This document shows positions 16,361 through 19,944 of a stretch of DNA of 64,000 nt, one piece after another (the stretch's first letter is position 1; each line of letters begins with the position of its first letter). Both the position numbers and the translations under genes were made by a program. The notes under the pieces are model-generated. The model did no database searches. It saw nothing but the letters and a program-made list of their open reading frames with translations, and was not told the origin of the DNA. Origin of the DNA: Lama glama (taxonomy: Eukaryota); contig CM052816.1 in the NCBI GenBank assembly GCA_028534125.1, positions 13,704,001 through 13,768,000 of the forward strand, given 5' to 3'.

Positions 16361-16949
16361 TAAGCGTCTCTTGGCAAAATCTCTTTGACAAACAAAGGTA
16401 TGTGGCTAAAAAAAATAAATGATCATGCTCACAATTTTTTATCTGTTGATCAAAATCTCCTTAGAGAAGCCAATAACACACACAAGTCTAGTTTTAAAAA
16501 CTGAACATCACTTGTTAATTATGAGCGTGTTTCTTCCTTGCCAAAAATATGACCCATTTATATGAGTCTAAAAACATCCCCGGAATCTCAGGAAACTTTA
16601 TAATGCCTAGGTCGAGGTACTTAAGCGCTGGTTTGAAATTTTCATGTCATTTCAGAAAGACTGTGTAAGTCGCTTACAGAGTGAAGTGTCCTCAAGAGCT
16701 TCTGCGCTCACAGGTATGTCTCCCTTGGCAGGTCACACAACTAGCAAACATTTGGTCCTGCCCCAGACATCCACTGAGACATTTGGTCCACAGTGATCCA
16801 TGAGTATATTTGGTCCATGCCAAATGGTCCTCGAAATTCAGTCCTGCCAAAAACACCCATGCTTGGAAAATGTCCCTGGATTCAAATAGCCTATGTTTGT
16901 TTACTGTTACGTTTACAGAATTAATACATAAAGAAAAATCCTACCATGT

Positions 16950-17617
16950 TTTATTGGTCCAGTAATTGTATCGAGGCTTTCTTGCCAATATTAACCCTTC
17001 TAGCCTCAGCAGTCTAGCTAGTAATGGCTCGTGGATTTAGGCAGATGGGTCAGGATTGGACTTCTGTAAGAGCGCAAGATTTATATTAACTATGTATACC
17101 CAGGAAGAATCCTACAGTTAGAGAAATGCACAGAGGGCAACAAGTTGAAGATGGAATCTCGCCATGCATGGTGCATTAATATGTCACTGGACACTTGGTC
17201 AGATGTGGCTGGGTCATTCAATAAGGGCAGAGTTTGAAAGGAGGAGCTTGGGCAAGGAGTGAGTGTTATGTTAAGACTTTACAAAGCATCTTGCTTGTAC
17301 AGGAGGAGTGAGAACAGGTGTGGCTCTCCTACCACACAGATACCTGGTGTAAGAGCGACCATGAGGGGAACACCAGGCATCTAATTAACCTCCATACAAC
17401 TATCCCATCACCCTCAGTTAATGGGCACTGTTTCCCTTGAATCAACATCCTATAGAGACATGATCACAGTAGCCTGCAAAAGTGTCTGCCACTATTTGAA
17501 GAAGTTTTAGTGGGTATGACTCCCACATTTACCTGTCCATTAACAGGGACCACAACACCCTCCATGAGTGCCTACAACTGACTGACTCAGCCCAGCCAAG
17601 TCAGGCGTTGAATCCAT
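16950..17617 (-). pseudogene. Putative decayed passenger gene of the transposon, resembling a vertnin-type OTU cysteine-protease domain
   Basis: Minus-strand fragments in collinear order: LQIVADTFA; PLTEGDG..WR.I..LVF (GDG at 17404-17412); LNDPATSDQVSSDI; QLVALCAFL/NCRI (17121-17147); ILRSY; IQL-WT (16953-16971). These parallel recalled vertnin motifs DSVAL, PLVCKGEG, PPATLEAIFDADV, HLYALASVLQRNI, KIRPY, LHIMW. Several frameshifts are needed and the alignment is by eye. Confidence 0.5.
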
Positions 17618-17712
17618 CAGACATTAATAAGGTTTCCTCTATCAGTAAACCAGCGACCACTGGTCAGACAGCTGCAGAAGAAAAAATAACCCTTCTCCTG
17701 TTGCTTGCCAGC

Positions 17713-19647
17713 ATGACCTTTTCATTGAAAATTCTCACTAGAATATCACAGAAAGAGCAGAATTTCACAGTAGAAAAGCCAATGCTGCATTAGAATGTTT
17801 TTTGTTATTATTTCCATCTTCTTAACAGAGACGGGAGTGAAAGGTACAGGCACTGTGGAGACAGGAGAATCTGCCCGACATGCAACTAGTCCTGACTTGG
17901 ATTACAGGACAATCATTCGAGACGGACAGGAAAACATCAGCAAAATGTTGGTGTTGAAAGTTAGGAAGGAAAACCCTGAATAGGTTAAAATGGCATGTAG
18001 ACGAACCAAATGCAACAGCATAGCAGGTACTTCAAAGCACTCTCCATGACATCATGATGAAGAGGTCCTATTCTTGCTACCAGAAAGAAGCTCACTGACA
18101 AGACAAGCAAAAAGAAATCAAAGCAGACTTCAACCTCCAAACGCAACTTCATTGCATGGAACTGAAACTCCAGAGAAGCATAAAGTGACCAGACACAGAA
18201 AATCATTTCTTATGCATGATGTCTGTGCTCAAGATGACAAAAGAATTCTTAGTTACACAACTGATGACAATGTTGGGTATTTAGGTGCCAGGACCATATC
18301 ACACACCTTCAAGGTGGCACCAACACAGTTCACTCAGTTATTCACTGTACAGGGTGTAGTACTGGGTTATACGATGCCATGGATTTAGGCACTAACAATG
18401 AAGAGGTGAGAAGACACTTAGAGTTACACACAAGAAAGTACCTACATTTGCAAGGGAAAGAAATCTCAACATTAGCCCTTCATCACGCATGATGGATTTC
18501 AAGACTGCACTTACGAATGCAATTAGACTACTCCTACCAAATGCACATGTGAGAAGATGCCTGTTTCACTTTTCACAATCACTGTGGCAAAAAATATCTT
18601 CTTTGGGTCTAACACGTGAGCACATAACAGAAAGTAACACCCGTAAGTGTGCAACCATGTTGTTCGGACTTCCATTTGTGCCTTTGGAAGACGTAAATGA
18701 AACTTCAAAGCACATTGTAGAGAATGCAGAAGAAAACTTAGATGACTTAATGGACTATGTTGAGAAAATGTATGCCCATGGAAGGCATGGCAGAAGATGA
18801 CCAGAAGCTCCAAGATTTCCATCAGAAACTTGGAATGTTTATACATCGGTGCTGAATGGCGATCACAGGATGAACAATGCACTGGAAGGCTGGCTTAGCC
18901 AATTCCAAAAGCTGAGGGTATTTTCATCTTAAAAGAAAAGGTAATAGGCCATTTTGTGGGAGCCCGTTTCTGCTGTCCTGAGCTGGGAGTGGGGGAAGGG
19001 AGAGGGTGGAATTCTGTAGAAGAAGATGGCATCTTTGCTTTAAATTGCTCTCGTTACTGGGAGACGGAAAACCAAGAGGGAGTTCCCTGCACATTTTTTG
19101 TAATACTTTTTAATGTTTCTCAAGCTGGAACAGGGTTCCTCAGGCCGGATGAGTTTTTAAAGACAATCCTTTACCACTGTCATTTTGGCTGACTGCTTAT
19201 TAAGTGCATTTGACAGCTGGAAAACATTCCTAATTGGCTTTGTCTCCTTTTTACACTGCCTTCCCCCTTCCTAGTTATTGAAAAAGAAGCATTTTAGTAT
19301 CAGGTTAGAAATTCAATTGCTGAATCTGAGTTTTTTTAAAGTGTATCTTTTAAATTAAAAACTCCAAATGTTTTTTAAAAAGCTGATGGCAGTGCATCAT
19401 CCTTCAATTTGTAAATTTATTAACATGTTAAAAGACAAACAGGAAAGCAGTGAACAAGTTATTACCCAGGCTCTTGGTGGTCACACTCAAATACAGCCAA
19501 CAACTACATGATGTTCAGATTCATAATAGTGAAACTGTTTACACGTATAACACATATAAAACCAATAATCAGGTCAACATATACCTGAAAACAGTTGCTC
19601 ACTGACTTAAGAGTAACCCTGACAAACTTTACGATGAGGAAGAATAA
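17713..19647 (+). pseudogene. Decayed FLYWCH + MULE DDE transposase, with frameshifts, stops and an insertion
   Basis: Manual translation across frameshifts gives: FLYWCH-like CYYFHLLNRDGSERYRHCGDRRICP (~17800-17880); LPERSSLTR...FLMHD...DKRILSYTT...TFKVAPTQFTQLFTVQG (ORF 18074); MMDFKTALTNAI...RCLFHFSQSLWQKI..LGL (ORF 18489; second D and CxxH motif); in frame after a TGA, PRFPSETWNVY...RMNNALEGW (catalytic E); after the insert, KLMAVHHPSICKFINMLKD and YLKTVAH. The first catalytic D (DGTF motif) appears deleted. Confidence 0.92.
18916..19377 (+). pseudogene. 462-bp insertion, probable 5'-truncated retrocopy of an mRNA 3' UTR (L1-mediated)
   Basis: Exact 9-bp TSD aaaagctga (18907-18915, 19378-19386). 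ATTAAA at 19354-19359 lies ~20 nt before an A run. Removing the insert plus one TSD copy restores the frame EGWLSQFQKL|MAVHHPSI. Confidence 0.8.
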
Positions 19648-19944
19648 AATCAATATGAAACCCAAAATTCATTATAAATTACAATAAAAATAACATAATG
19701 AAAATTTTAAATGTTTGTATCATTTACAAATCATGAACCAAATGTCTCAATGGACATTTTGAACATTTTCAAGGACCTTTTGGCATGGACCAAATATCCT
19801 GTAAGGGTTCACACAGACTCCATAAGGCCACATCTCTTTCTCATCTCTCTGTCCCAATCACAGGATCCTAATGCCAAAGCTAAGCAGAGTCACTTGTTAA
19901 CACAGAAAGAACTGAACAAATGTCTGTGGTTGGCAGGACATCCC

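Follow-up and report, generated by a model that had tools for sequence, protein, structure and literature searches.

A stretch of 64,000 nucleotides from the llama genome (Lama glama, contig CM052816.1 of assembly GCA_028534125.1, forward-strand positions 13,704,001 to 13,768,000; the window in what follows) was found to carry, at 16740-19806, what is very probably one member of a multi-copy family of mammalian DNA transposons: a full-length but dead copy of an ancient element of the Mutator superfamily (a Mutator-like element, MULE). The anatomy of the element, its other copies in the genome, the protein domains of its transposase and the divergence of the copies, which serves as a proxy for age, carry this reading.

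Ends, target duplications and gene of the window copy

At both termini, 16740 on the left (ACTAGCAAACATTTGGTCC) and 19806 on the right (GGACCAAATATCCTGTAAGG), the sequence agrees with the ends of other copies (ATTAGCAGACATTTGGTCC ... GGACCAAATGTCCTGCAAGG), and the window copy is full length when set against the family consensus. When the terminal unit was projected onto all loci, the left ends of seven copies read A(T/C)TAG(C/T)(A/G)GACATTTGGTCC and the right ends of nine copies read, in reverse complement, C(C)TTGCAGGACATTTGGTCC. These family ends match the boundaries that an earlier interpretation of the window, made from its letters alone (the sequence-only reading), had given to the element. 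We then looked at the 9-bp target site duplications (TSDs), which were counted by eye from the flanks of nine elements with two clear ends, and found that 55 of the 81 positions agree, compared to the 25% expected by chance. The match is 8/9 in the window, the value first noticed there, 7/9 in each of the copies on C32 and C26, 5/9 in the C36 copy and 4/9 in the C2 copy (6 if shifted by one base), and among miniature copies it is 9/9 in L036, 7/9 in L047, 5/9 in L039 and 3/9 in L037. The long copies L014, L020 and L022 gave no TSD reading because their right ends run on into further units.

The exact 9-mer ATTTGGTCC occurs at four sites in the 64-kb window, on the forward strand at 16750, 16781 and 16808 and on the reverse strand at 19787, and all four fall within the two ends of the element, which bears out the earlier description of inverted termini made of repeated units. 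With one mismatch allowed, the 9-mer was found 19 times in the window, compared to 19.2 times expected from shuffling; this count is that of chance, and therefore only the clustering of the exact sites is informative. The top inverted pair reported by a repeat finder is 34 nt long with 91% identity (16803-16836 with 19767-19800), and a second pair lies in another register; the ends are arrays of related units. In the consensus, 47 of 48 positions pair, which together with the terminal bases gives a terminal inverted repeat (TIR) of about 52 bp in its short form, and inward of this TIR the left end runs on with more units of about 31 bp. The pairing in individual copies amounts to 31-41 matches over 34-46 nt. 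The right end of the window copy is of a long form: it contains one more unit, of the ATGCCAAAAGGTCC type, which is common to L020, L028, L014 and L022, and the three units of this long form span about 79-83 bp by hand count.

We next examined the transposase gene. Pfam MULE (PF10551) was detected in a window open reading frame (ORF) at 18402-18800 (132 codons, E 3.3e-6, 27.9 bits for a cut-off of 27.6) and again, with 26.5 bits, in a read-through in which stops were replaced by X. The Pfam comparison thus bore out the MULE part of the FLYWCH and MULE transposase proposed by the sequence-only reading in the window copy itself, while Pfam FLYWCH was not detected there and came from a sister copy: PF04500 was found in the stop-free fragment L011:2056-2244 (E 1.9e-5, 25.1 bits for a cut-off of 23.6), and it scored 17.6 bits in L019. 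In the window, the corresponding region (17773-17958) matches consensus residues 11-74 by tblastn and contains three stops and a frameshift. The peptides on which the proposal had been built are all present, namely MMDF at 18489-18500 (D259), CLFH at 18558-18569, NNALEGW at 18873-18893 (E391) and the C-terminal YLKTVAH. Consensus residues 397-441 and 420-490 map, in two frames, to the C-terminal remnant beyond the insertion described below (tblastn).

The consensus ORF begins at nt 1036 and has 496 codons, with a FLYWCH-type finger at its start. The D, D, E triad and the CxxH after the second D are present in it as D193, D259, C280-x-x-H283 and E391; D193, D259 and E391 are presumably the catalytic residues, an assignment that follows the MULE motif pattern. 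In an alignment with 49 homologues, 36 positions are conserved to 90% or more, and the consensus holds the common residue at 35 of them, including those conserved in 49/49 (D193), 49/49 (D259), 46/49 (E391), 47/49 (C280/H283), 49/49 (W373) and 46/49 (H67/H69) of the homologues. Upstream of the gene, the 5′ stretch of about 0.9 kb (consensus nt ~130-1035) holds no long open frame, and a tblastn search of the consensus with 21 related proteins gave nothing significant upstream of nt ~1030.

The sequence-only reading had presented the element as a near-complete copy of the autonomous type. Its full length stood, but the state of its gene did not: the window gene has at least six in-frame stops and at least three frame changes, D193 is lost (the region reads ISHTFK, 18296-18313), and a 459-bp insertion interrupts it. 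This insertion, which had been set aside as such at 18916-19386, lies between two copies of the 12-nt repeat AAAAGCTGA(G/T)GG. Its sole other match in the genome is the locus L054 (C6:49658994-49659444, reverse strand, 85%); the homology stops about 17 nt past AATTAAA, after which the window copy shows a short A run and then the second 12-nt repeat. The insertion is a 5′-truncated processed retrocopy of the 3′ end of a transcript, inside a dead transposase gene. Together with one repeat it measures 471 bp, a multiple of three, and therefore the reading frames carry on across it.

Table 1. Features of the transposon copy and of its flanks, in window coordinates
Feature	Position	Strand	Evidence
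Left TSD, GGTCACACA	16731..16739		8/9 vs 19807-19815; family-wide boundary directly before A(T/C)TAG
Left TIR and subterminal array, ~31-bp units with core ATTTGGTCC	16740..16870	+	Exact cores; aligns with left ends of 6 other long copies
5′ leader, ~0.9 kb	16871..17742	+	DNA-level conservation among copies; no coding similarity detected
Decayed N-terminal FLYWCH zinc-finger region	17743..17960	+	tblastn; Pfam FLYWCH in sister copies L011 and L019
Decayed linker and MULE DDE catalytic region	17961..18918	+	Pfam MULE, motif coordinates, conserved columns
Later insertion, 5′-truncated processed retrocopy	18919..19377	+	12-nt direct repeats at 18907-18918 and 19378-19389
C-terminal transposase remnant (HHPSICKF 19395-, YLKTVAH 19582-19602)	19387..19665	+	tblastn, motif coordinates
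3′ untranslated stretch and right TIR, long form with extra unit	19666..19806	-	Reverse complement aligns with family right ends
Right TSD, GTTCACACA	19807..19815		8/9 vs 16731-16739

Copies, age and miniature derivatives in the llama genome

Searches of the source genome (2.35 Gb, an assembly of 1.07 million contigs) gave at least 33 matches to the left end of the element, 54 to its interior and 36 to its right part. The interior matches are 68-79% identical and represent at least about 24 distinct loci on large contigs, in addition to small contigs; the long copies are 70-79% identical. Many of the small contigs (such as C535622, C538611, C539544, C542488, C771030 and C812898) show the terminal motif at identical offsets, which suggests that such tiny contigs are redundant or haplotype contigs that inflate the raw copy counts. 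A consensus was taken as the majority of the window copy, with the insertion removed, and 14 other long copies (2669 columns); about 13 columns at its right edge are flank, so the element itself measures about 2.65 kb. The 15 copies differ from this consensus by a Kimura two-parameter (K2P) distance of 0.142-0.216, with a mean of 0.173. The mammalian neutral rate is about 2.2e-9 per site per year, and at this rate these distances would place the activity of the family roughly 70-100 million years ago, followed by neutral decay.

With three or fewer mismatches allowed, the terminal 22-mer was found at 313 sites in the genome, compared to 40 for the reversed control. The several hundred terminal-motif sites are mostly miniature derivatives of 100-330 bp, in which consensus nt 1 to ~130 are found again. 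Among the first 20 terminal-only loci, 19 are clusters of terminal units in two orientations within about 130-450 bp, and the remaining locus, L051, is a long copy with internal deletions; a further eight loci comprise four clusters, one mini-element of about 100 bp, two single ends with unrelated sequence and one 22-nt match. A foreign interior shared between loci was found in 0 of 27 terminal-only loci. The genome search proposed by the sequence-only reading yielded long copies as well as miniatures with 9-bp TSDs, including the perfect duplication of L036. The miniatures L033-L050, L052, L055, L056 and L060-L062 (for example C37:22011300-22017400) consist of the terminal units of about 31 bp only, in varying number. 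L051 (C33:992000-997700, about 1.66 kb) joins consensus nt ~266 to ~811 and ~1567 to ~1817, and thus larger non-autonomous forms exist too.

Several points weigh against taking the window element as a full-length MULE of this family and age. The two ends of the window copy are no clean mirror image; this imperfect mirror and the odd register of the inverted pairs arise because the right end is the long form with its extra unit. The MULE score in the window is barely above the cut-off, and of seven further long read-throughs of sister copies six were without a Pfam MULE match; the assignment of the domain is therefore marginal for any one decayed copy, and far clearer for the family consensus. 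The A2 profile, built from 22 in-frame fragments, matched no solved structure at E<=1. The consensus was built from 15 copies only and relies on a home-made CpG correction, and five stops remain in its ORF; the conserved 5′ stretch of about 0.9 kb may be a leader, a promoter or a lost second gene. The date, finally, is a rough estimate from a general mammalian neutral rate. Two other identities were considered: hAT or another superfamily is ruled out by the Pfam hits and the 9-bp duplication, and a domesticated gene by the stops that run throughout every copy.

For the element as a Mutator transposon, a life history can be proposed, in which we infer the DNA-binding role of the FLYWCH finger, the chemistry and the date. 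The live element would have been about 2.65 kb long and would have encoded one transposase of about 495 residues. Its N-terminal FLYWCH finger may have recognised the repeated units with the ATTTGGTCC core in both ends, which offer a simple candidate binding site for it; the FLYWCH finger is assigned to the WRKY-GCM1 fold, common to the DNA-binding domains of MULE transposases (PMC1702500). By analogy with the mosquito element Muta1, the MULE DDE domain (D193, D259, E391, CxxH and the conserved W) would have excised the element and pasted it into a 9-bp staggered cut. On the model of the steps given for Muta1 (PMC5499845), double-strand breaks would have left hairpins on the flanking DNA, and the ends would have been joined to the staggered target, yielding the 9-bp duplication. 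The same transposase would have mobilised the miniature copies of 100-330 bp that consist of both ends only. In the window copy, stops and frameshifts have since broken the gene, the first catalytic aspartate has been lost, and an L1-type retrocopy has landed in the gene.

Whipworm relatives and the origin of the family

We then searched for relatives of the transposase. The A2 profile, run against 1.84 billion representative proteins, gave 5532 hits at E<=1e-3, of which 1538 remain at 1e-10 and 54 at 1e-30; proteins of 460-500 residues, matched in their C-terminal half, are frequent among the hits. The top named hits are hypothetical proteins of the whipworm Trichuris suis and a T. trichiura "FLYWCH and MULE domain containing protein". 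A word-based search with a T. suis protein gave 69 hits, of which 66 carry the PF10551 label; T. suis paralogues come first, followed by T. trichiura, whitefly, thrips, a fungus, a shrimp and another nematode, and no named vertebrate protein is among these 69. The T. suis paralogues (P0151, P0159, P0160, P0161, P0162, P0177, P0179 and P0182) are 50-99% identical to P0151; more than one assembly contains their ORFs of 317-566 aa, and the contigs concerned measure 112 kb to 2.8 Mb. P0182 also carries a DDE-1 annotation, possibly through a fusion of gene models. In T. trichiura, solely the more distant type turned up.

In a local BLASTP of the family consensus, T. suis P0159 is 69.9% identical over 489 residues, P0160, P0161 and P0151 (T. 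suis group) 66-67%, P0162 54.8%, T. trichiura P0002 47.6% over all 481 residues and a thrips protein 42%. The consensus is collinear from residue 1-2 with the 481-aa T. trichiura protein and with the 516-aa P0159. The top 150 representatives include 18 short proteins (68-175 aa) whose identity to the consensus, 57.6-76.5%, exceeds that to the worm protein, as open pieces of decayed mammalian copies would look; besides Trichuris suis and these 18, the top-150 proteins are at most 49.6% identical to the consensus. Short family pieces were also seen unchanged on up to 34 (P0017/P0223) and 26 (P0021/P0229) metagenome-type contigs. These recurring pieces are probably host DNA in the samples, a hint that often-sampled hosts carry the family. 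In a quick maximum-likelihood tree of the consensus and 51 proteins, mostly near full length and picked from 222 with short fragments excluded, the consensus and all six Trichuris proteins form a clade of seven rows with a support of 99 (SH-aLRT, Shimodaira-Hasegawa-like approximate likelihood ratio test). The monophyly of the worm proteins inside this clade has a support of 80 only.

This likeness could be an artefact, either of host DNA in worm assemblies or of worm DNA in the mammalian assembly, and cross-contamination between parasite and host is known, as in the Trichuris/Trichinella-like sequence in a shrew assembly described in PMC6542046. However, the T. suis genes have long, intact frames, with several diverged paralogues, and lie on large contigs of more than one assembly, whereas the mammalian copies have a stop every few dozen codons, are 14-22% decayed and sit in contigs of 50-109 Mb, and one of them has itself been struck by a retrocopy. 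Because the worm genes are open on large contigs and the mammalian copies are decayed in chromosome-scale contigs, contamination does not explain the likeness, and we regard it as extremely improbable. Vertical descent from early animals might seem to be favoured by the wide distribution of FLYWCH-MULE proteins in animals, as seen in the 5532 library hits. Against it, the copies stand at one burst-like level of divergence, the identity is 66-70% to one nematode lineage compared to at most 50% for every other full-length library protein, and no human MULE-MuDR fossil was seen to be older than amniotes (PMC9004415). The burst-like age, the identity gap and the lack of human fossils predating amniotes together make vertical descent very unlikely, though marginally less so than contamination.

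Since contamination fails and vertical descent is unlikely, horizontal transfer into early placental mammals is the natural reading of the sequence comparisons. For such a transfer, the best candidate at present is a route between host and parasite that whipworms share, which we put forward as a tentative proposal that may well prove wrong. Nematode-vertebrate transfer has precedents in retrotransposons and in the hookworm bandit element (PMC6542046). On the other side, the transposon proteins of most animals are absent from protein libraries and the T. trichiura type is more distant, both of which weigh against the whipworm route. A survey of horizontally transferred mammalian DNA transposons (Paulat 2023) mentions neither MULE, Mutator nor nematodes.

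The annotation of a repeat is as such routine. The llama family, however, shows all the hallmarks together in a mammal, namely the FLYWCH finger, the DDE triad, TIRs, 9-bp duplications and miniature derivatives. Its nearest intact relatives live in whipworms of mammalian guts, with a clear identity gap to the rest, which makes an old host-parasite transfer directly testable. If it took place, it would represent, for the Mutator superfamily, an exchange of transposons between nematodes and mammals, and no paper linking Trichuris and mammalian MULEs was found in the open-access text searched.

Library status and comparison with known Mutator systems

We next considered whether the family is already catalogued, which would remove the novelty suggested by the sequence-only reading. 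We think it rather likely that the family is known and present in Repbase or Dfam, as a relative of the Ricksha_0 type or as another DNA/MULE-MuDR entry, and that it is covered by routine repeat annotation; the library identity is probably a Ricksha_0-type element. The only human MuDR entries are RICKSHA, RICKSHA_0 and Ricksha_a (Kojima 2018, PMC5753468), and RICKSHA_0 combines the Ricksha TIRs with another, non-retroviral interior (Zhi 2006, PMC1431705). In Frith 2022 (PMC9004415), 374 of 437 human MULE-MuDR protein fossils lie within RepeatMasker DNA-class annotation on the same strand, and this human count is of about the same order as the fragments expected from the roughly 24-40 long copies here. 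The age of the family also suits a eutherian-wide repeat, and its long-form end of about 79-83 bp is near the reported 79-bp TIR.

Other observations fit a known entry less well and favour a distinct mammalian MULE family that is missing or only partial in curated libraries, which we consider unlikely. The three placental MuDR entries of Repbase are not listed as autonomous and contain no MULE transposase, so that Repbase held no autonomous placental MuDR in 2019, and no transposase was found in the horse sequences of a 2010 report (Dupeyron 2019, PMC6446971). Cargo of the ERVL/MLT2B type, and with it the composite structure of Ricksha, was seen in 0 of 27 terminal-only loci, and the short-form TIR measures about 52 bp compared to 79 bp. 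However, most human MULE protein fossils already lie inside RepeatMasker annotation (PMC9004415), and dozens of 2.6-kb copies this old would be unlikely to escape 25 years of mammalian repeat curation.

The presence of the family as a Ricksha_0-type library entry thus remains the favoured reading, and the Ricksha elements are the first system for comparison, here by description only. Ricksha and Ricksha_0 share with the llama family the host group, the superfamily label, a great age and long TIRs. The contrast that the sequence-only reading drew with Ricksha termini made of aatccc-type repeats is a conjecture, for which the indirect evidence points both ways. The TIRs of RICKSHA and RICKSHA_0 are 79 bp long, and RICKSHA carries as cargo the 3′ part of an ERVL with MLT2B (Zhi 2006, PMC1431705); Ricksha and Ricksha_c are described in the same way in the Dfam paper. 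The llama TIR is about 52 bp in the short form or about 79-83 bp in the long form, and the absence of ERVL/MLT2B cargo from the 27 loci has no bearing on RICKSHA_0. Unlike the Repbase Ricksha entries, which are listed as non-autonomous, the llama family encodes a transposase.

The Phantom group resembles the llama family in the fusion of a FLYWCH finger to a MULE transposase and in its animal host, a likeness by architecture and description. Phantom elements are tabulated with animal hosts, duplications of 8-10 bp and TIRs that are variable and often long (PMC6446971). A 2010 report of Phantom elements with a FLYWCH alignment in horse is known to us as cited and doubted by Dupeyron 2019 (PMC6446971), who found no MULE transposase in vertebrates and held the eutherian and zebrafish entries to be probably mis-identified. 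The llama family encodes a real MULE transposase in a mammal. It bears on the question raised in that paper, whether MULEs are truly absent from vertebrates, and the same data settle the published doubt on genuine vertebrate MULEs.

Muta1 of Aedes aegypti, which Dupeyron 2019 places with Phantom, is a MULE with a single ORF, a terminal motif and subterminal repeats, as is the case here. Its DDE triad and conserved W are required (PMC5499845). Muta1 is active and biochemically characterised, whereas the llama family is dead and its mechanism would follow by analogy. In the case of the Trichuris FLYWCH-MULE proteins (KFD47203, KHJ40130, CDW58273 and paralogues), the likeness, drawn from proteins, extends to a full-length architecture collinear with the consensus; the worm genes are open and multi-copy, whereas the mammalian copies are fossils.

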